NCBI GenBank assembly: GCA_048940925.1
Contig: JBHLOC010000024.1
Coordinates: 64,108-79,747 of the forward strand
Origin: Promethearchaeota archaeon
Lineage (GTDB): Archaea > Asgardarchaeota > Lokiarchaeia > Sigyniarchaeales > SOKP01
Direction of reading: 5' to 3'
Length of the DNA: 15,640 nt
The notes under the pieces are model-generated. The model was not told the origin of the DNA, did no database searches, and saw only the letters and a program-made list of their open reading frames with translations. Both the position numbers and the translations under genes were made by a program. Below are positions 1,257 through 14,644 of this stretch, one piece after another. Position 1 is the stretch's first letter, and each line of letters starts with the position of its first letter.

Positions 1257-3185
1257 TTAGTTTCTATTTAGTCGGATAGTAAATTTACTCCCTTTACCCC
1301 TTCCTTTAGATTTTACTATAATTTTACCATTATGTAGTTTAACAATTTCTTTTGAAATGTATAAGCCTAGACCAGGCCCTTCCATATCGATATTCAAATT
1401 TTTTCCATACCTTTCAACCTTACCGAATTTCTTAAATAAAAATTGTATCTCCCTTTTTGTTAATCCTACGCCATCATCTTTAATAATGATATCTACATAC
1501 CTAGGATGTTCAAAAGTCTTAATATAAACACTACCATTAGGATAAGTATTTTTAATAGCATTTGATAGTATATTAGATATTACATTGCTTATTTTTAATT
1601 TATCTACATCTAAATATAATTTTTTGATAAGTTCAACATTTATGAAGATTTTACGTTTATTAGCAATAAAAATTAAATCATCAACACAATTTTTAATAAT
1701 TGGAATTAAATTTTCTCTTTTAAAATTTAGGATAAGTTGGTTTGATTCTATACTATAAGTAATTAGTAGATTATCAACTATATTTTTTAATCGATATCCA
1801 CCCTCATGAATAAATTTAAGAACATATTGAAAATTTTCATTCAGTTGATTCTTGTATTTATCTAATAAATATTGAGAGCCACTAAAAATTGAAATTAAGG
1901 GTGTTTTTAATTCATGTGAAATCCTTCTTATTAAATCACTCCTGATCTGTTCAAGCTCTTTTAATTTTTCAATTTCTCTTTTCATCATCTTTTCAATTTT
2001 TCTTTTCTCAGTTATGTCGCTAATAAGGGCAAAGATTTTTAATTTGTTATCGATTTCTGCCAGACTGCCTTTTACAGATATTGGAACATAATATCCTTTT
2101 TTATGTAATAATCTTAACTCCAAAGAAAATTTATCTCCAGCTTCAGGAGCATTATTAATTAATTTCATATCCCCCAGTTTATCTTGTGGATGTAAAAGTT
2201 TACTAAAATTTAATCCAGTTAATTCTTTTGGGTGATATCCAATTATATCATAAATTTGATGACTTATGTAAATAATTGTACCATCTATATTACTTTCCAC
2301 CAAAACATCTGAAATATTGGTTATTATATTTTTGATTTTCTCCTCAGACTCTCTTAATTGTATTTGGGCTTTAAGACGTTCTGAAATATCACGAATATAT
2401 TCAATTACTCCTTTAATTTCACCAGTATCGTGATCTAGAAGTGGAAAAGTGTAAACGTCTAACATACCTATAATTTTTCCATCACGATTCCTTCTCTCTA
2501 TAATATTGGAAGATGATTTACATTTTTTTATTACTTCTTGGCAAGTACAATCTTCGCATGGTTGTAATTTATTAAAAAATACATTATAACATTTTTTACT
2601 TAAAATAGGTTTCATATGTGGATACCACTTAGCTATAGTAGGATTCGCACGGACAATATTATAATCCTTATCAATGATCAAAATGCCATCTTGAATACTT
2701 TTAAAAGTATTAGAAAGTAATTTTTCTCTGTATCGAAGTTCTTCTTCTGTTTGAATTTTATCTGTTTTATCCTGTAAAAAAGATAGAATATAATTTTTCT
2801 CTTTAACTTTTATATGATTGGCATTTACAAATATGGTTTTTATTTTACCATTCTTGGTTTTATACTTAGTTTCAAAAGAGTCATGACCTTTCTTAATAAT
2901 CTTCAAGATATGAGCTTTATATTCCTCAGAATTTTCTGTAATGTCAAAATCTGGTATTATTAACTTTTTAAATTCCTCAGGAGTATAACCAAGAGTTTCA
3001 TTCATTTTACTGTTAAAATCAATAATCTTACCTGTTTCAGTATCAATAAGAATGATTGAATGCGGTGATTGCTCAAATAATGTCTTATATTTTTTTTCAG
3101 ACTCTTTTAATTTACTTTCTATTCGTTGCAATTCTACATGCATACCTGCTCCCCTTTTTTTTAATGCATGCTCTTCATGCTTCAT
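1257..3185 (-). CDS. Cytoplasmic PAS-PAS-PAS sensor histidine kinase (copy 1)
   Basis: Three PAS domains, each preceded by an LKESEKKY-type linker. H-box ISHELKTPLISI, N-box NILSNAIKNT, G1 DDGVGL, F-box LFKKFG, G2 GPGLGLYIS, G3 GKGSKF. No TM segment. Confidence 0.95.
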   Translation of the reverse strand: MKHEEHALKKRGAGMHVELQRIESKLKESEKKYKTLFEQSPHSIILIDTETGKIIDFNSKMNETLGYTPEEFKKLIIPDFDITENSEEYKAHILKIIKKGHDSFETKYKTKNGKIKTIFVNANHIKVKEKNYILSFLQDKTDKIQTEEELRYREKLLSNTFKSIQDGILIIDKDYNIVRANPTIAKWYPHMKPILSKKCYNVFFNKLQPCEDCTCQEVIKKCKSSSNIIERRNRDGKIIGMLDVYTFPLLDHDTGEIKGVIEYIRDISERLKAQIQLRESEEKIKNIITNISDVLVESNIDGTIIYISHQIYDIIGYHPKELTGLNFSKLLHPQDKLGDMKLINNAPEAGDKFSLELRLLHKKGYYVPISVKGSLAEIDNKLKIFALISDITEKRKIEKMMKREIEKLKELEQIRSDLIRRISHELKTPLISIFSGSQYLLDKYKNQLNENFQYVLKFIHEGGYRLKNIVDNLLITYSIESNQLILNFKRENLIPIIKNCVDDLIFIANKRKIFINVELIKKLYLDVDKLKISNVISNILSNAIKNTYPNGSVYIKTFEHPRYVDIIIKDDGVGLTKREIQFLFKKFGKVERYGKNLNIDMEGPGLGLYISKEIVKLHNGKIIVKSKGRGKGSKFTIRLNRN

Positions 3186-3199
3186 TTTGGCTAATACAT

Positions 3200-3216
3200 T
3201 TATACATTTTTTAAGT
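3200..3216. repeat. 17-bp element TTATACATTTTTTAAGT upstream of kinase 1, identical to 7285-7301
   Basis: Direct comparison of the two kinase 5' flanks. An 8-bp tandem duplication (ATACATTT x2) sits next to this copy only. Confidence 0.8.
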
Positions 3217-3446
3217 GAATACTTCTCTTCCTTTATTAGAAAACCAATTATTATTTTCTTGTCCTGCTAAATCAAAAATTCCTAGATCATTATTGAATGT
3301 TGAATAAACACTTGAATTGACACCCCTAGATGGCTGTAAAGGATTTTGCAAAACTGAAATAGGACTAACATGGCTAAAAATACTTCTTTAATTGTTGTTT
3401 TTCCTACTCCTGGTGGTCCAGTAAATATAATTTTTTTTCTATTCAA
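3211..3446 (-). pseudogene. Frameshifted, 3'-truncated small GTPase (Rag/Gtr1-like N-terminal half)
   Basis: Manual translation gives (TTG 3446) NRKKIIFTGPPGVGKTTIKEVF, then a frameshift at the A5 run 3376-3380, then FSHVSPISVLQNPLQPSRGVNSSVYSTFNNDLGIFDLAGQENNNWFSNKGREVFT*. G1 (GxxGxGKT), G2-like (PSRG) and G3 (DxAGQE) are present. G4 and G5 are absent. Confidence 0.85.
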
Positions 3447-3510
3447 ATTTAAATTCTGAATTTATGATTAAATTATCCTATATATTTTAAGGAATTTTTC
3501 ATGTATTTTT

Positions 3511-3723
3511 CTAGGTGTTTAAAGCATCTCTTAAAAGATTTCTAATAAATTGCTGTTCCAATTCAACTTTAACTGAAGTGTATATTGCTCTTGGACCTAG
3601 AGTATGATCATATTTACCAATGATTATAACAAAAGGATAGTCTTCTAAAATAGATTGAAAATTATTATAGGTATCGGAAATTATATTTTTTACAGTATCT
3701 TCTACTTGTTTCCTGTCAACCAT
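3511..3723 (-). pseudogene. Probable truncated longin/uDENN-like domain protein directly upstream of the GTPase remnant
   Basis: 70-aa ORF containing FVIIIGKYDHTLGPRAIY, resembling the first beta-hairpin of NPRL2/Afi1/uDENN-type longin domains (hydrophobic strand, F/Y-D/H, xxxGP). It is too short for a whole domain. Confidence 0.5.
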
Positions 3724-3956
3724 TTCTTCATTCCACTTTGCTTTTCTCTAATGTATACTATGAATAATTTTTTTAGAGGAATTTTTTTGAATATTAATTC
3801 TAGTAAGTCCCAAATATACACTATTCTTGATCCTTTTTCGTAAAAATAATAACAAAATTTATTTATTAATTTTTTTATTTTACTATTAAAAAATATTTTA
3901 GCACTAAAAAAAAAAGTTAGTACCTTTTTACATTAAAATAAAAAGGATAATAAGAT

Positions 3957-4251
3957 ATGTCAGAATCAGTTAAAACAATTATTAAATATTTTTCTGATCG
4001 GTTTTTAAATTTAGATTATTATTCAAGTTCGAATAAATTAAAAGAGATTGAAATTGTCAGATTACCCGATCTCATTCAGTTAGAAGATTATGGATTTGAA
4101 AATCTAATTGAAAAATTGTCTCTTAACAGAACCACCTTGAAAAATGCCTTAATAGCTTTTAGTTTTATCAACCACACCTAAAGGGCAAATTCTTTCAGAA
4201 TTAAAAGAAATGTTCATAAAACGTGGTTTGGCTAGTCGTTATGATTTATAA
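3957..4251 (+). pseudogene. Divergently oriented gene remnant of unknown function, probably with an internal deletion or frameshift
   Basis: The 74-aa ORF ends at 4181. An overlapping frame (4162-4251) reads VLSTTPKGQILSELKEMFIKRGLASRYDL*, which looks like a genuine protein C-terminus. Confidence 0.5.
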
Positions 4252-4359
4252 TAAATTTAACTGGCTCAATAAGCTAAATCTCACATAAGATATCTTAATA
4301 TTATTTTTACCATTTTTTATTATTAAAAATGTTTTTAACTTGATCTTCATAATTTTTAG

Positions 4360-4384
4360 ACTTAAATAGATCATACTTAAATAG
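4360..4384 (+). promoter_or_regulatory. Direct repeat ACTTAAATAG x2 (4360-4369, 4375-4384) upstream of regulator 2, a candidate operator
   Basis: Perfect 10-bp direct repeat with a 15-bp period, about 80-130 bp before the gene. The AT-rich background weakens its significance. Confidence 0.3.
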
Positions 4385-4493
4385 TTTTTAGTGTATAATT
4401 CAAATATTTAATAGAATAGATAAATTGAAAATGGGATTAATTATTTTTTATAGGTGATAATCAATACCAAATTCTGAAAAAAAAAATAACGAA

Positions 4494-5321
4494 ATGAAGC
4501 GATATGAAGAAGAAACAGGAAAACAAGCAATTTGGCAGGGTAAAGTTACAAAAGGTTTTTTAAGATGGAAAGAAGGTGAAAAAAATTATTACGCTAATAA
4601 AAAAAGAATTTCTGTTTATGTCTCAAGTGAAACTGAAAAAATATGGGAAAGATTTTTAAAGATACACAAATACTCTTCCTTTTCTAAACTTATACGAGAG
4701 AGTGTTAACTTTTACATTAATGAAAAATCGAAATTTGGTGGAAATTTAATCTCGGATTTAGCAGAAGAGAAATCATCGAATATGGTTCATATATTAAAGG
4801 AAAGATTAACTACAATTAAAGGATTTTTACAATTAGCACTTGAAAAATTTAGTGATATCTTAAATGATGAAATAAAATCAATTATTAATAATGTTTTAAA
4901 TGAGGCAAGACAATTAGAAAATAATTTTGTAATAAAATTAGAGGAAAAAGAAGTAAAACCTTCCCAATATGATGTTCTCCTTATTGAAGATGATCTATCC
5001 ACTGTAGATTTATTAAAAAATTATTTTGAAAGTAAAGGCTATAGTTTTAAAGGAGTTTTAACAGGAGTGAAAGGAGTTGAAGAATTAAGTAGGTCTACAC
5101 CAAAATTAATTTTAATTGACATCATTTTACCTGATATTAGTGGATATGACATATGTAAAGATATTAAATCTCACAAAACATTAAAAAACATACCTGTTTT
5201 CTATTTAACAGCAGTACCTGGTGATAAGGTAGAGAATCGGATGCAAGACACAATGGCAGATGGTTTTATTCTAAAACCTTTTGATTTACTTGATTTGGAA
5301 ATTTTATTTAAATATTTATAA
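4494..5321 (+). CDS. RHH-DHp-REC response regulator (copy 2, paralog of 340..1218)
   Basis: YEEETGKQAIWQGKVTKGFLRW motif; RHH KKRISVYVSSETEKIW...SSFSKLIRESVNFYI; H-box-like MVHILKERLTTIKGF; REC VLLIEDD, LILIDIILPD, YLTA, ILKPF. The frame is open upstream to ATA at 4464. Confidence 0.9.
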   Translation: MKRYEEETGKQAIWQGKVTKGFLRWKEGEKNYYANKKRISVYVSSETEKIWERFLKIHKYSSFSKLIRESVNFYINEKSKFGGNLISDLAEEKSSNMVHILKERLTTIKGFLQLALEKFSDILNDEIKSIINNVLNEARQLENNFVIKLEEKEVKPSQYDVLLIEDDLSTVDLLKNYFESKGYSFKGVLTGVKGVEELSRSTPKLILIDIILPDISGYDICKDIKSHKTLKNIPVFYLTAVPGDKVENRMQDTMADGFILKPFDLLDLEILFKYL

Positions 5322-5376: not shown

Positions 5377-7278
5377 TTAATGCTTTTTATATGGAAGTGA
5401 AAAAGAGCAAGTAGTACCTTTACCTCTTCCTTCTGATTCAATCCAAATATTTCCTCCATGGAGCTCTATTATCTCTTTTGAGAGATATAAGCCTAATCCA
5501 ATACCATCAGAAATTATATCCCACCCTTCTCCATATTTCTCAATCTTACCAAATGGTTTAAATAATTGTTCAATTTCATTTTGATTTAATCCTATTCCAT
5601 TATCTTTAATAGATGTTATTACAGAACTCTTCAAGATTACAACCTGAATTAATATATTTCCACCTTTAGGAGTATATTTTATCGAATTCAAGAGAAGATT
5701 CGTAATCAAATTATAAATTCGAGTCTTATCTATTTCTATGATTAATATATCAGGAATATTTAAGCTAATAGTGTGTTTTCTTAATCTAATCATCCCATCC
5801 AATTCTTCTATTCCTTTCTTAATCAAATCAGATAGATTTTCTCGAGTCCTTGCTAATTCTACTAAATGTTTATCTAATAGTGAACTTTCTATGAAATTAT
5901 TTATCAAAATTCTAAGCCTCTCCGCTCCATCTTTAATTCTTTTTAAAAAAGATAATATTGTATTATTAAGACTTTCACTATAATCTGTTAATATTAAATC
6001 GGTAAATCCTTTAATGGATATGAGAGGAGTTTTGAATTCATGGGAAAATCTTGTTATTAGATTGGATTTCATTTCTGCAATCTCTTTTTTTTCAGTTATA
6101 TCTTTTAGCCATAATCTTGATTTAAGTAAATTCCCTTGATAATCAAATTCATTTCTTACTAATCCTGACAACCATATTATTTTTCCTTCTTTGTTCAATA
6201 GTTTAAATTCAATATTTTGTTCTCCATGGAAGTCTCTAATTTTTTTTAGATCTTTAGAAAATATAACTTTATAAAAAATATTTTCATCATTCAATTGTTC
6301 TTTTGAATAGCCAATAATATTCAGTAACCTAGGATTAATGTAAATAATTCCTCCTTTTACGAAGTCAATCTCCATTAAACCCATTGAAGATGTTTCAATA
6401 AGATTCCGATATTTTTGTTCAGATGCTCTTAATTTCTTTTCCATCATTTTCTTTTCAGTAATATCAACGACTATTCCTCTTACGCCTTCCCTTTTTTTTA
6501 TATTATCATAAAAGTATTGATTTAATTCAAGAATCCATTTAATTTCTCCATTTTTAGTGCTAATTCGATACTCTCTCTTACCTTTTTGGATATTAGGATC
6601 GTTATGAAACTTTTTTATATCTTTTCTTACTTTAGGTAAATCCTCTTGGTGAATTAAATCACCCCAATTTATATTTCCTGAAATAAAGTCATATTCAGAA
6701 TATCCTGTAATTTCCTCTACAGCACCTTGGAAGAAAGCAGCAGAAAAATCAGCGTAGCCTTGAAATGCAATCCCCTGAAAATTTTGTATCAATGCACGAT
6801 ATTTCTCTTCAGATTCTTTTAATTCCTGCTCAGCTTTCTTTCTATCTGTGATATCTCGTACTAATCCTCTAAAACCAATTATTTTTCCATTGGAATCATA
6901 TCTTAAATAAACAGAAGATTCAACAAATAATTTTTCTCCACTCTTCTTAATAACTTCATGATCAAATAAGTGCGATCCTTCTCCTGCTTTATATAGATTG
7001 TTAAATACAGTAAATACTTTCTTTTTAGTCTTTTCATCATATAATTGACTATAATGCATATTCAGTAATTCTTTTCTTGTGTACCCAATATATTTGGGTA
7101 AAGCACTATTGAAAAATGTGAAATTTCCCTTAATATCCACTTCATAATATAATTCATTGATGTGTTCGAGTATACTCTTATATTTTTCTTCAGATTCTTT
7201 TAGTTTTCTTTCTATTCGTTGCAATTCTACATTCATTTTTGCTTCCCTTTTTACTAATATATGTTCTTTATGTTTCAT
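5377..7278 (-). CDS. Cytoplasmic PAS-PAS-PAS sensor histidine kinase (copy 2)
   Basis: PAS domains end in RDITDRK, VDITEKK and KDITEKK. H-box FSHEFKTPLISIKGF, N-box NLLLNSIKYT, DNGIGL, LFKPFG, GIGLGLYLS, GKGTTC. Confidence 0.95.
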   Translation of the reverse strand: MKHKEHILVKREAKMNVELQRIERKLKESEEKYKSILEHINELYYEVDIKGNFTFFNSALPKYIGYTRKELLNMHYSQLYDEKTKKKVFTVFNNLYKAGEGSHLFDHEVIKKSGEKLFVESSVYLRYDSNGKIIGFRGLVRDITDRKKAEQELKESEEKYRALIQNFQGIAFQGYADFSAAFFQGAVEEITGYSEYDFISGNINWGDLIHQEDLPKVRKDIKKFHNDPNIQKGKREYRISTKNGEIKWILELNQYFYDNIKKREGVRGIVVDITEKKMMEKKLRASEQKYRNLIETSSMGLMEIDFVKGGIIYINPRLLNIIGYSKEQLNDENIFYKVIFSKDLKKIRDFHGEQNIEFKLLNKEGKIIWLSGLVRNEFDYQGNLLKSRLWLKDITEKKEIAEMKSNLITRFSHEFKTPLISIKGFTDLILTDYSESLNNTILSFLKRIKDGAERLRILINNFIESSLLDKHLVELARTRENLSDLIKKGIEELDGMIRLRKHTISLNIPDILIIEIDKTRIYNLITNLLLNSIKYTPKGGNILIQVVILKSSVITSIKDNGIGLNQNEIEQLFKPFGKIEKYGEGWDIISDGIGLGLYLSKEIIELHGGNIWIESEGRGKGTTCSFSLPYKKH

Positions 7279-7281
7279 TTT

Positions 7282-7302
7282 AACTTATACATTTTTTAAG
7301 TT
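7282..7302. promoter_or_regulatory. Inverted repeat AACTTA-N9-TAAGTT overlapping the 17-bp element shared by both kinase 5' flanks
   Basis: AACTTA at 7282-7287 and TAAGTT at 7297-7302, 3 bp from the kinase ATG. The equivalent site before kinase 1 is CATTTA-N9-TAAGTG. Confidence 0.45.
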
Positions 7303-11792: not shown

Positions 11793-13184
11793 ATGAAAAT
11801 TCTATTATTATATCCTCCTTTTCAAGTTGGAAAGGGAATGGGAAAAGTGATGTGTAGTCCTCCATTGTCACTATTAACTCTAGCTGGAACAGTTAAAGAT
11901 CTATTTCATGAAATAGAAATACTCGATTTAAATATAGATCATTCTTATGGAATTGAAAAAATAGAACAAAAGATAAAGCAATATGACATGGTTGGAATCA
12001 CTTGTATGACAAATACTTTTAAAGTAGTATTAAATATTTGTAAAATTGCTAAGAGAAATGGTGTTAAAACTCTATTGGGTGGATTTCATCCAACATTAAA
12101 ACCAGATATTATTGAAGAATTTAATTGTATTGATATGTTATGTAGGGGTGAAGGAGAAATTACCTTTAGAGAATTATTAGAAGGCAAACCGAAAAGTGAA
12201 ATTTTAGGGTTATCATATAGAGTTAACGGAGAAGTATTTCATAATCCAGATCGACCTTCTATTAAAAATTTGGATGAGTTATCCTATCCAAGTAATAAAC
12301 TTTTTCCTTCTGATGCTTATCATTATTTATGGATAAAAGCTTGGGTTGTTGAATCCAGTAGAGGATGTCCTTTTAACTGTAATTTTTGCTGTGTAACTAA
12401 ATTTCATAAAGGAAAATATAGAGTAAAATCTCCTCAAAGAGTAATTAATGAACTCTTTAATGTACCTCCAGATGTTAAACTAATATTTTTTGTAGATGAT
12501 AATTTTTCGCTAAATTCTAAGCGTATTCTTCGTATTTGTGAATTAATAAGAAAAAATAGGTTACATAAAAGATTTATGTTTGTTTGTCAGAGTCGAGTTG
12601 ACGATTTAGCAAATAACCCTAATATGGTTAAAGCGATGTCAGAAGCCGGATTTATATGTGTTTTTCTCGGTATCGAGTCAACAAAACAGATGAGTTTAGA
12701 TCAAATGAACAAGCGATATTCACTTGATAAACTACGTAAGTGCATTAATCTCTGTCATAAAAATGGAATAATTGTGTTTGGATCTTTTATAATTGGCAAT
12801 TTAGGAGAAAATTCAGCAGATACATGGGAGACTCTTCATATGATGAAAGAACTTGAAATAGACCTCATGATGACTAATCCAATAACACCATTTCCAAATA
12901 CTCCTCTATATGATGATGCTGTGGCTAATAATTGGATATCTAAGGATTTTAAATGGGAAAAATGGGATCTAACGCCTGTAATGAGTACACCTGATATGTC
13001 TAAAGTGGAAATACAAGATCTACTCGATGAGAGTTATAGATTCTTCTATAATGATATTGGTTATTTCTTATTTGGAAAACGATTATTAAGATTAATCTTT
13101 AATCCAAAATTTTGGTGGTTTGGTAAAGTTGCATTTTCTTTTCTAATCAATGGATTGACAAAATTCGTATTACAATTAGATTAA
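11793..13184 (+). CDS. B12-binding domain radical SAM protein (class B methyltransferase/BchE-like superfamily)
   Basis: N-terminal B12-binding domain (LLYPP, PPLSLLTLAG, VGIT, GGFHPT, GEGE). SSRGCPFNCNFC carries the CxxxCxxC motif. Also FVDDNF, FLGIES, FIIG and TPFPNTPLY. Confidence 0.95.
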   Translation: MKILLLYPPFQVGKGMGKVMCSPPLSLLTLAGTVKDLFHEIEILDLNIDHSYGIEKIEQKIKQYDMVGITCMTNTFKVVLNICKIAKRNGVKTLLGGFHPTLKPDIIEEFNCIDMLCRGEGEITFRELLEGKPKSEILGLSYRVNGEVFHNPDRPSIKNLDELSYPSNKLFPSDAYHYLWIKAWVVESSRGCPFNCNFCCVTKFHKGKYRVKSPQRVINELFNVPPDVKLIFFVDDNFSLNSKRILRICELIRKNRLHKRFMFVCQSRVDDLANNPNMVKAMSEAGFICVFLGIESTKQMSLDQMNKRYSLDKLRKCINLCHKNGIIVFGSFIIGNLGENSADTWETLHMMKELEIDLMMTNPITPFPNTPLYDDAVANNWISKDFKWEKWDLTPVMSTPDMSKVEIQDLLDESYRFFYNDIGYFLFGKRLLRLIFNPKFWWFGKVAFSFLINGLTKFVLQLD

Positions 13185-13251
13185 TATTAATTCATTATAT
13201 ATAGAGAAACATTTTTTTCAATCTTCTGAGATGTTATTAAATTTTTTCTTT
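13133..13251 (+). repeat. Direct repeat copy 1: last 16 codons of the radical SAM gene, its stop codon and 3' flank
   Basis: 13133-13225 aligns to 14199-14292 with about 9-10 differences over about 93 bp. Similarity resumes after an indel (13230-13251 vs 14339-14364). Confidence 0.9.
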
Positions 13252-14136
13252 ATTTATTTTTGCAATATTGCATGAAAAAAAAGTTCAAAAGTATCTTAGA
13301 TCTCTGAGAAAAATACCAATTCTTTTCAAGTAAAATAAATTAAGATTAACCAATCACCTTTTAATGGTTTCTTCTAAATTTTACTGCTCGAACATTTAAT
13401 TTCTCGAAAATTCCTGTTCTGTTAGTCAAGATTTTATTTATCATTATTTTTTTATACTTAAATTCTATTATATAGAAATTCCTTAAAAATTACCTCCAAT
13501 TCTGCTTTCAGGAATCCTCAAAAAAATTTAATTTTAATATTTTGCATTCCAAACTTGAGTTTTTGCGATATTATCTTGCCATTACCATGTTTATTGCCAA
13601 TAAACGATTAAAGCTTTATTTAATGTTATGGATTCATATTTTTATAAAAACAAATCAAATCAATAAAATTATCATCCAGAAAATTTCAATTAAGGCTGAT
13701 TCTTGATAAATTGGAACTAAAGAACCAGGAAAAAAGTCCGGTCCTAAAGGATCAGAATAATCCTCTTTTTAAATCTTTTTGAGCAAAAAAAAAGAATACA
13801 TTCATTAAAAACAAAGGGAATTAGTATCCATAAAAAAAGTATATTATCGTTAGAAATCACCCACATAAAACTCAAGTTAAGATCTATGCTATTTCTGCCT
13901 TGTCAAAGGATATATTTTACTTACATCCTCCTTGAAAAATTGAAGATTAACATCATATGGCGATCCCAAGAATTTATCTCCTTACGCATACAGGGAAACA
14001 CTTCAACAGAGTTATCTTCTTTTTTTAGATTAAAATCTTGTGAGCTTTGCTTTACTCCCTGCTGTATGATGATCTTCCCTTTTTTGGATTTTCTTTTTCC
14101 TTTATTTGACATTCTATATGGTTTAATTATTTTCAT
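13250..14136 (-). pseudogene. Heavily decayed gene of unknown function between the two direct repeats
   Basis: It starts with ORF 13921..14136 and continues in broken frames: DKFLGSPYDVNLQFFKEDVSKIYPLTRQK*, KEDYSDPLGPDFFPGSLVPIYQESALIEIF, LNKALIVYWQ*TW*WQDNIAKTQVWNAKY*N*IFLRIPESRIGGNF*GISI, INKILTNRTGIFEKLNVRAVKFRRNH*. The 3' boundary is approximate. Confidence 0.55.
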
Positions 14137-14198: not shown

Positions 14199-14364
14199 AT
14201 TTTCCTTTTTAATCAATGGATTGACAAAAATCCTATTACAATTAGATTAATATCAATTCATTATAAATAGAGAGATATTTTTTTATAATCTTGATTCTCT
14301 ATAGATTGTAATTGAAGTCTTTAATTAAAAGCAGGAATGATGTTATTTATTAAATTTTTCTTTT
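14199..14364 (+). repeat. Direct repeat copy 2: orphan radical SAM 3' end (FSFLINGLTKILLQLD*)
   Basis: Offset 1066 bp from copy 1. It translates to a near-identical C-terminal peptide with the same TAA stop. Confidence 0.9.
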
Positions 14365-14644
14365 AATGAATTCTCCATTATATTATTCATCAGTTCGATT
14401 TCCTTATTAAATAATGATTAGAAATTACTTAAAGAATTAGAATTTTTACCAAGCAAAAGATATTGAATTAATATTGCGTCGGGAGAGAATGTAGGAGAGG
14501 CAGAATTTCTTTACCATAGGCAATTCATAATAATTTGGTTTCATTAAAACTCAAATCGTATTCAGTTAAACAGTAAATTTATAAATTAAAATTGCATCAA
14601 CTCCTTTGACAGAAAGAGATTAATTTTTTAAGAAAATAAAACTT

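Follow-up and report, generated by a model that had tools for sequence, protein, structure and literature searches.

Two gene stubs on the minus strand

We analysed a 15,640-nt stretch of DNA from a Promethearchaeota archaeon (assembly GCA_048940925.1, contig JBHLOC010000024.1, positions 64,108 to 79,747 of the forward strand), here called the window, in which an original prediction, made from the sequence alone, had described a hidden gene pair at positions 3211–3723: a longin/uDENN-like gene and a Rag-like GTPase gene, both in decay. Our comparison with related genomes leads us to conclude with confidence that this minus-strand region is a pseudogene pair derived from a gene for an FLCN/NPRL2-type longin protein and a gene for a Rag-like GTPase. 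Intact counterparts of both stubs were sought in 40 related genomes, and a search with the repaired GTPase peptide retrieved genomes of the same genus in which the two genes lie next to each other. As intact, adjacent and co-oriented orthologs are present in the genomes G003, G008 and G012, both window genes are identified as stubs, not just as one frameshifted gene. The predicted decay was therefore correct but understated: both genes have suffered large deletions, and a third gene at 3957–4181 on the plus strand is also a remnant.

The longin-gene remnant (3511–3723, minus strand) is an open reading frame (ORF) of 70 codons that contains IIIGKYDHTLGPRAIY and corresponds to codons 1–70 of a protein of ~227 residues, comprising an N-terminal helix, strands β1 and β2 and helix α1. 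It shares 81%, 69% and 67% identity with residues 1–70 of the intact 226–227-residue proteins of G005, G003 and G008, respectively; the matched proteins of the related genomes range from 226 to 230 residues. Its terminal TAG is made by a deletion junction at 3514/3515, where 442 bp are missing from the interior of the gene relative to G003: window positions 4026–3515 align with 2760–2248 of the G003 locus (L012), and positions 3514–3210 with 1805–1497. The latter segment holds the final 33 nt of the G003 longin gene, then the intergenic spacer, then ~80 codons from the start of the GTPase gene, and a relic of the last ~13 longin codons (LEKYMKNSLKYIG, followed by the stop) is still readable at 3473–3514 on the minus strand, now out of frame. 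The encoded fragment ends after helix α1, and strands β3–β5, three of the five strands of the sheet, are gone together with the Arg loop. The GP motif of the longin domain, GKYDHTLGP (3592–3618, minus strand; β1-loop-β2, G36 to P44), which was assigned from family conservation and a structural model, is retained, with the GP dipeptide itself at 3592–3597. The microhomologies AAAAAT and ATC-AAC are present at the deletion junctions; we rejected them as proof of a deletion mechanism, since such sequences are too common in DNA of 25% GC.

The GTPase remnant follows on the same strand, with a spacer of 64 nt between the stop of the longin ORF (3511) and a TTG start codon (3446), which is the distance that the prediction had given for the co-oriented upstream ORF. 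The first frame (3381–3446) begins at this TTG, which is also the start codon of the intact G003 ortholog, reads MNRKKIIFTGPPGVGKTTIKEV, carries the P-loop (G1) motif GPPGVGKT and aligns with the N-terminus of intact 293-residue orthologs. The second frame (3211–3375) begins with SHVSP and extends through DLAGQENNNWFSNKGREVFT to a TAA, covering the switch I region, G3 (DLAGQE) and ~14 further residues. Both frames meet at an A5 homopolymer (T5 on the coding strand) at 3376–3380, which is one base short of the ortholog reading frame, and one added base would fuse them, as had been claimed. In line with this, a single alignment connects the peptide, with X marking the break, to residues 2–78 of the intact 293-residue protein of G003 (62% identity, E 6e-32). 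Homology to the G003 gene ends at window position 3210, at about codon 80 of 293, leaving a stub of the first ~78 residues that lacks the C-terminal domain as well as G4 and G5. Neither this stub nor the longin stub can yield a working protein.

A rearrangement junction marks the 3′ end of the GTPase remnant. Its stop codon is provided by a 15-nt element (ATACATTTTTTAAGT) at 3202–3216 that is also found in the 5′ flank of a second kinase gene (7287–7301), and the start codon of the adjoining kinase gene lies 25 nt past this stop. The end of homology at 3210 together with the recurrence of the element at 7287–7301 indicates that the GTPase gene was cut by a rearrangement that brought in the kinase cassette.

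The third remnant is a 74-residue ORF (3957–4181, plus strand), the stub of a divergently transcribed gene for an Arf/Rag-like GTPase of ~499 residues, with 51–54% identity to residues 1–94 of the 498–499-residue proteins of G003 and G005. The intact protein matches the Pfam families Arf (82 bits) and Gtr1_RagA (78 bits). Here, a 60-bp deletion (window 4027–4062 in place of 96 bp of G003) and a deletion of ~1.14 kb with its junction at 4152–4166 amount to ~1.2 kb lost in total, as seen from the alignment of window 4063–4151 with L021 12825–12914 and of 4167 onward with L021 14074 onward.

Thus, the locus carries the marks by which pseudogenes are recognised: a 442-bp deletion, a 1-nt frameshift, a 3′ truncation, ~1.2 kb lost from the divergent GTPase gene and no intact copy. 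The source genome (4.8 Mb, 29.6% GC, 90 contigs, 100% completeness, 8.4% contamination) yielded no second copy of the longin gene, of the 293-residue GTPase gene or of the genes for a 711-residue kinase and for 438- and 516-residue GTPases that accompany them in relatives, when searched as a whole with tblastn. The lesions and the lack of a second copy together indicate that the locus is dead in this organism.

The intact proteins and their locus in relatives

The 78-residue GTPase stub is too short for a Pfam test by itself, and the Rag assignment rests on its intact orthologs. An intact ortholog matches Gtr1_RagA (PF04670) with 57.5 bits (1.7e-15; cutoff 22), compared to 35.5 bits for Ras and 28 bits for Arf. 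A profile of 30 family members searched against the PDB retrieved Gtr1 (1.6e-15), RagA (6e-15), and Gtr2 and RagC/D (~1e-10; RagC 6e-10), all ahead of any Arf-like protein (Arl6, 4e-6). Residues H123, K124 and D126 of G4 (HKxD) and T159 and S160 of G5 (TSI) are invariant in these 30 members, and the family's HKiD and TSI align with HKMD and TSIWDE of Gtr1 and RagA; both segments are deleted from the window copy. In Rag/Gtr GTPases, HKxD stands at G4 in place of NKxD.

An AlphaFold2 (AF2) model of the 293-residue protein (predicted local distance difference test score, pLDDT, 89) retrieved as its top Foldseek matches exclusively Gtr1, Gtr2, RagA, RagC, RagD and the Lokiarchaeota RagA-like structure 8yl2. 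The likeness ends with the G domain. Residues 190–286 are modelled as helices and one β-hairpin in a winged-helix pattern, Pfam gave weak winged-helix matches and no roadblock match for the C-terminal half, and full-length superposition of the model on Rags leaves a root-mean-square deviation (rmsd) of ~11 Å. The C-terminal roadblock domain is the part of Rags that mediates dimerisation. By profile and fold rankings, the resemblance of the protein to Rags is therefore confined to its G domain, and the predicted Rag character stands for this domain and fails for the C-terminus.

The intact longin protein belongs to a family with 283 members among 5.8 billion proteins and 24 clusters at 50% identity among 1.84 billion; none is annotated by Pfam and all are labelled hypothetical. 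Its AF2 model (pLDDT 83) shows an N-terminal helix, the canonical longin fold (β-β-α-β-β-β-α-α) and a C-terminal two-helix hairpin, with DSSP placing the strands at 32–39, 43–49, 74–78, 82–92 and 100–110 and the helices at 54–69, 118–130 and 141–156. Foldseek returned NPRL2 chains of GATOR1 on top (4e-5), and chains of LOV kinases were also among the matches. VIA Z scores were highest for NPRL2 (13.7/13.4/12.9), followed by a solved Lokiarchaeota longin (12.7), yeast Npr2 (12.5) and FLCN (12.3), while generic longins (adaptin sigma, VAMP7, Sec22b) scored ~10 and DENND1B 9.6. The matches to NPRL2 and FLCN extend over ~130 residues at an rmsd of 2.7–3.0 and a sequence identity of 7–16%. Neighbours in the ESM Atlas comprise eukaryotic NPRL2 clusters (TM 0.60), a Heimdall cluster with Folliculin matches, and Promethearchaeota proteins that join a longin of this kind to an Arf/Ras-type G domain. 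At the sequence level, 21 of 27 members show sub-threshold matches to Pfam Folliculin (PF11704; best E 3.8e-5), and the intact protein has no match to Pfam NPR2 (PF06218).

The longin fold of the upstream protein is thus as predicted, and its predicted uDENN-like character turned out to be the weaker label, with FLCN/NPRL2-type fitting instead. A core DENN domain is absent, the C-terminal part being a two-helix hairpin without a DENN match in Pfam, and DENND1B and DENND10 rank below NPRL2 and FLCN. The best conserved motif of the family is GKYDxxLGP, with D39 and G43 present in all and P44 in at least 90% of 27 members. This GP motif lies at the start of β2 in the model, which is one of the two positions described for it (the end of the β1-β2 loop or the start of β2) in a study that reports it as specific to longins of GTPase-activating proteins (GAPs), present in FLCN, NPRL2, SMCR8 and C9orf72 and absent from FNIP2, NPRL3 and the DENND, adaptin and TRAPP longins (PMC12290439). 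A second candidate feature is R97, part of an ARG triplet in the β4-β5 loop, which is found in 24 of 27 members and lies inside the Folliculin match (residues 83–131), in the segment that is deleted from the window. A phmmer search with the 61-residue Arg-loop segment gave no match in the PDB.

The C-terminal hairpin (residues 164–226) carries an H-box-like motif (NLQIRSGINTIQGF) and gives weak HisKA (PF00512) matches in 8 of 27 members. In the alignment with the histidine kinase 4jas, however, a Leu occupies the position of the phospho-acceptor His. At most, the hairpin is a scaffold resembling the dimerisation and histidine phosphotransfer (DHp) domain, not a phospho-acceptor.

In genomes of the same genus, the intact genes are part of a larger cluster that comprises the longin gene (227 residues), the Rag-like GTPase gene (293 residues), a GAF-PAS-PAS histidine kinase gene (711 residues) and two genes for larger Rag-like GTPases of ~440 residues (438; best PDB match Gtr2) and ~515 residues (516; best PDB match Gtr1), as well as the divergent Arf/Rag-like GTPase (~499 residues) and a HisKA-like/receiver protein. 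The 293-residue GTPase gene starts 20–50 nt downstream of the longin gene on the same strand. This arrangement, with a 293-type GTPase directly downstream and co-oriented, is found in 19 of the 29 genomes with a full-length longin homolog and spans several genera, so that the two genes are indeed neighbours elsewhere. A PAS histidine kinase and the two larger Rag-like GTPases are usually encoded next to the pair. Among four longin members of only 33–45% identity, three adjoin a Gtr1_RagA GTPase and all four adjoin PAS-kinase or receiver genes; one of these distant members (P0247, 36% identity) lies beside a 293-type GTPase, and P0240 follows a Gtr1_RagA GTPase of 512 residues. Judged from gene sequences and their order, the longin–GTPase linkage survives deep divergence within the longin family.

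In a set of 301 genomes from the phylum, longin homologs of full length turned up in only two families of a single order, which includes Lokiarchaeum. Within the genus of the window, a homolog was found in 9 of the 22 genomes searched. A variant of 391 residues (P0251) was observed on the metagenome contigs L032 and L033; it is extended at the N-terminus by a segment that matches PAS faintly, and its gene is divergent to one for a Gtr1_RagA GTPase of 472 residues, with a Cas_NE0113/Cas_APE2256 (CARF-type) gene coming after the GTPase gene.

Taken together, the original prediction is supported: intact homologs of the upstream ORF adopt a longin fold, the two genes are neighbours in other genomes, and the G domain of the GTPase groups with the Rag family.

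Proposed role of the intact module and state of the window copy

We propose that the longin protein would act as a GAP on at least one of the Rag-like GTPases encoded beside it or, alternatively, as another regulator of their nucleotide state. It would probably be dimeric via its hairpin, and the DHp-like tail may serve for this dimerisation or for docking to kinase and receiver proteins of the locus, by which the longin–GTPase module would be wired to a PAS/GAF-kinase phosphorelay. The genome of the window has lost this module through the 442-bp deletion in the longin gene, through the frameshift in the GTPase gene and the loss of everything past codon ~80 on joining the kinase leader, and through the removal of ~1.2 kb from the divergent gene. 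As the protein has the GP motif and the Arg loop and resembles NPRL2 and FLCN, a GAP role is the most likely one, although we rate its chance as slightly below even.

Several points weigh against these assignments and this role. An intact longin ortholog reaches only 20.5 bits with Pfam Folliculin (residues 83–131; curated cutoff 23.3), and a profile of the longin family searched against the PDB retrieved weak MIF and histidine-kinase matches only, with FLCN and NPRL2 not among them. The margin over generic longins is only ~3 Z units, and the solved Lokiarchaeota longin scores as high as the eukaryotic proteins. Three of 27 aligned members lack R97, which is only a candidate equivalent of the FLCN/NPRL2 arginine finger. 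In eukaryotes, a GAP longin works in a heterodimer together with another longin subunit, and such a partner was not identified in the cluster maps. The compared genomes are related, and the adjacency counts are therefore not independent. The analysis establishes the identity of the genes and their folds, motifs, synteny and lesions, whereas GAP activity, physical binding and the link to kinase signalling are what we infer. Co-folding of the G domain (residues 1–185) with the longin protein, GTP and Mg, run without controls, returned a score of 0.00, which speaks neither for nor against binding.

Gene order likewise bears on the choice of client. Ten of the 29 genomes, including G005 and G024, have the longin gene without an adjacent 293-residue GTPase, and in G240 the downstream 293-type gene is degenerate (L051, G240:C10:670528-674151), from which it follows that the 293-residue GTPase may not be the main or only client of the longin protein. 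In this G240 gene, which belongs to another genus, G3 reads LVGEEN in place of DLAGQE, HKxD is no longer present and the frame stops at ~148 residues; it would represent an independent decay of a 293-type GTPase.

The longin protein might accordingly not be a GAP of the 293-residue GTPase at all and serve instead as a guanine nucleotide exchange factor (GEF) or a scaffold platform, or it might have the ~440- and ~515-residue Rag-like GTPases or the divergent Arf/Rag-like GTPase as its clients, with the window remaining a dead remnant in either case. Besides the ten genomes and the degenerate gene of G240, this explanation draws on the 711-residue kinase and the 440/515-residue GTPases that remain beside the longin gene in G005 and G024, on P0240 with its 512-residue neighbour, on the 438- and 516-residue proteins that match Gtr2 and Gtr1 best, like a Rag pair, and on R97 not being universal. 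Most longin and roadblock proteins are GEF or scaffold platforms. Against it stand the tight co-oriented spacing in 19 genomes of several genera and the 293-type gene beside P0247, which argue for co-expression, as well as NPRL2 and FLCN as the top structural matches and the reported restriction of the GP motif to GAP longins (PMC12290439). We regard such a different role or client as possible, if on the unlikely side.

Returning to a longin GAP acting on Rag-like GTPases, the full proposal would be that the intact locus is a prokaryotic counterpart of the Rag–GATOR1/FLCN axis, in which a GP-motif longin GAP also docks onto PAS/GAF histidine kinases or HisKA-receiver proteins via its His-less DHp-like tail and thereby forms one GTPase–phosphorelay sensing circuit. 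In this complete form the proposal is tentative and more doubtful than not. The earlier picture of an operon remnant that resembles the Rag–GATOR1 pairing stands for the identity of the two genes and their adjacency, while the regulatory role as GAP or GEF remains conjectural.

A very improbable explanation for the window copy itself is that the stubs are kept as functional short products, for example as a microprotein from the 70-residue longin fragment or, for the GTPase start, as the product of a programmed −1 frameshift. The ATG of the 70-residue ORF and the region upstream of it are still present, as is the motif that is best conserved in the family, and the remnant has diverged from G003 (73% identity) no further than have the flanking intact genes (74–76%). 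However, the longin fragment stops after helix α1 without three of the five longin strands, the GTPase stub is devoid of G4 and G5, and a comparable short form was not seen as a conserved gene in any other of the 301 genomes searched. Similar divergence is also expected if the deletions are recent. In line with this, a relative in a separate mangrove-metagenome study, represented by a Logan contig of run X11 and ~94% identical over window 3777–4030, retains the 60 bp deleted from the window at 4027–4062, as its contig runs past 4030 and encodes LKDILDLEL. The X11 relative thus suggests that the erosion is recent and occurred at the strain level.

A contig of X11 also covers positions 3335–3501 including the A5 run without a difference or indel, and Logan contigs of two further runs, X1 (depth 20) and X2 (depth 10), are identical to the window across 2900–4500. 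Both runs may be source samples, and only these two bridge the junction at 3514/3515, which X8 and X11 do not. It is scarcely credible that the breaks are sequencing or assembly artefacts (a homopolymer miscount or a collapsed or chimeric contig) and that the genes are intact in the organism: although the assembly consists of 90 contigs with 8.4% contamination, the window lies at the end of contig C82 and the frameshift falls in a homopolymer, the contig of an independent study passes through the A5 run without a difference and extends over 31 nt beyond it in either direction, those of two further runs agree over the whole region at depths of 20 and 10, the big deletions keep the 5′ and 3′ gene ends in order, unlike assembly errors, and repair of the frameshift alone would still leave a 78-residue stub.

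Neighbouring genes and relation to known systems

The gene joined to the GTPase remnant encodes an intact triple-PAS histidine kinase of 642 residues by Pfam (1257–3185, minus strand), whose leader forms the other side of the rearrangement junction. We considered whether this could be the locus's own GAF-PAS kinase minus its N-terminus and rejected this, as it shares 25% identity with the 711-residue kinase and is closer to paralogs of the second kinase. The leaders of the two PAS kinases (3070–3201 and 7163–7294) are 81% identical over 132 nt, comprising about 35 first codons and ~16 nt upstream, while the proteins are 32% identical overall. An exact 119-nt duplicate of 3083–3201 was likewise rejected: direct comparison revealed the 81% identity to 7163–7294, which makes the two stretches similar kinase leaders and speaks against a recent exact duplication. 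The shared leader may reflect recombination or gene conversion at the LKESEKKYK linker. On the other side of the remnants, an intact gene for a HisKA-like and receiver protein of 275 residues by Pfam (4494–5321, plus strand) shows 76% identity to the 287-residue protein at the same position in G003 and is, by sequence and position, a conserved neighbour of the locus. The HisKA-like/receiver genes beside both kinases are 43% identical to each other, indicating that the whole convergent kinase cassette is an old duplicate.

Some further features were observed in the window and elsewhere in the same genome. An intergenic direct repeat of 86 nt (91% identical) is found at 13133–13218 and 14199–14284 with a spacing of 1066 nt, and another repeat pair at 13234–13268 and 14347–14381. 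A different Rag-like module lies at G000:C45:47001-54000 (L064), where a gene for a Gtr1_RagA GTPase of 304 residues (3132–4046, minus strand) is directly followed by a gene (2055–3104, minus strand) for a protein of 349 residues with an N-terminal domain of ~120 residues fused to an Arf/Ras-type G domain. A Rab/Ras-like GTPase gene at G000:C78:59434-60045 carries one in-frame TGA in an unusually long switch II insert (WDIAGQSN, stop, ALLYCVYPQFYMLHRPYFNGADG); the frame is unchanged past the TGA, which could be a nonsense mutation or a site of read-through or recoding.

Asgard archaea possess numerous small GTPases as well as numerous longin and roadblock proteins, and it has been hard to pair the regulators with their GTPases. 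Both Rag/Gtr-group GTPases and GP-motif longins of the FLCN/SMCR8 type have already been described in these archaea (PMC12290439, PMC10933270, bioRxiv 10.1101/2024.02.28.582541). Whether Asgard GP-motif longins have Rag-like or Arf-related GTPases as partners was raised and left open (PMC12290439; Traffic 2025), and the GTPase genes of MK-D1, a cultured strain, generally lie outside operons with longin or roadblock genes (PMC10933270). In the literature searched, we found no description of a conserved longin and Rag-like gene pair, of such a pair among three further Rag/Arf-like GTPases and PAS kinases, or of a His-less DHp-like tail. The components are thus of known kinds, and their arrangement in the relatives is an undescribed variant.

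The locus of the relatives offers a concrete and testable answer to the pairing problem, with a conserved tight longin and Rag-like pair inside a cluster with three more Rag/Arf-like GTPases and an unexpected tie of the longin protein to PAS histidine kinases via its DHp-like tail. If the proposed role holds, these would be the first cognate longin–GTPase pairs in Asgard archaea, predicted from gene order, and they would suggest that the regulation of Rags by longin GAPs is older than eukaryotes and was at first coupled to two-component sensing. The functionless pseudogene pair of the window is valuable as a pointer to this intact locus and to the GTPases on which these eukaryote-like regulators may act. 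It also shows that the module is dispensable, patchy within the genus (9/22 genomes) and caught here midway through deletional erosion, which bears on the gain and loss of eukaryote-like modules.

The closest known relatives of the longin protein are the Asgard FLCN/SMCR8-type longins (PMC12290439), with which it shares the longin fold, the GP motif at the β1-β2 junction, an Arg nearby, the Asgard host, the structural similarity to FLCN and NPRL2 and the weak or sub-threshold Folliculin matches. In contrast to these, where the emphasis is on Heimdallarchaeia, homologs of the present protein were confined to two families of a single order among the 301 genomes searched; it also differs by its C-terminal His-less DHp-like hairpin and by the position of its gene, immediately upstream of one for a Rag-like GTPase and within a histidine-kinase cluster. 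NPRL2 of GATOR1 and FLCN, eukaryotic longin GAPs of Rag GTPases, are its best structural matches and have in common with it the GP motif and a tie to Rag/Gtr-type GTPases, which for the present family comes from gene neighbourhood. Unlike them, the protein, known here from sequence and model, has no DENN or C-terminal NPRL2 domain and ends in a helical hairpin, and neither an NPRL3/FNIP-type second subunit nor DEPDC5 was identified for the family.

The 293-residue GTPases resemble RagA-D, Gtr1/2 and the Asgard RagGtr group (PDB 8yl2, 'LokiRagO', and 9m28, 'LokiRagM') in G-domain sequence and fold, in DxxGQ followed by (E)NxF, in HKxD, in TSI at G5 and in a similar length of ~290–310 residues. 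Their C-terminal half, in contrast, consists of a helix and a winged helix and not of the Rag roadblock domain. A bacterial parallel is provided by MglA and MglB with RomR-RomX, a small GTPase with a roadblock GAP and a receiver-domain GEF (PMC10933270, 10.1101/2022.03.17.484758), which likewise combines a prokaryotic Ras-superfamily GTPase, a regulator of the roadblock/longin class and domains of the two-component type. In that system, however, the GTPase is MglA, the regulator is a roadblock protein and there is no PAS-kinase operon of the present layout, whereas in the relatives of the window a Rag-like GTPase adjoins a GP-motif longin.

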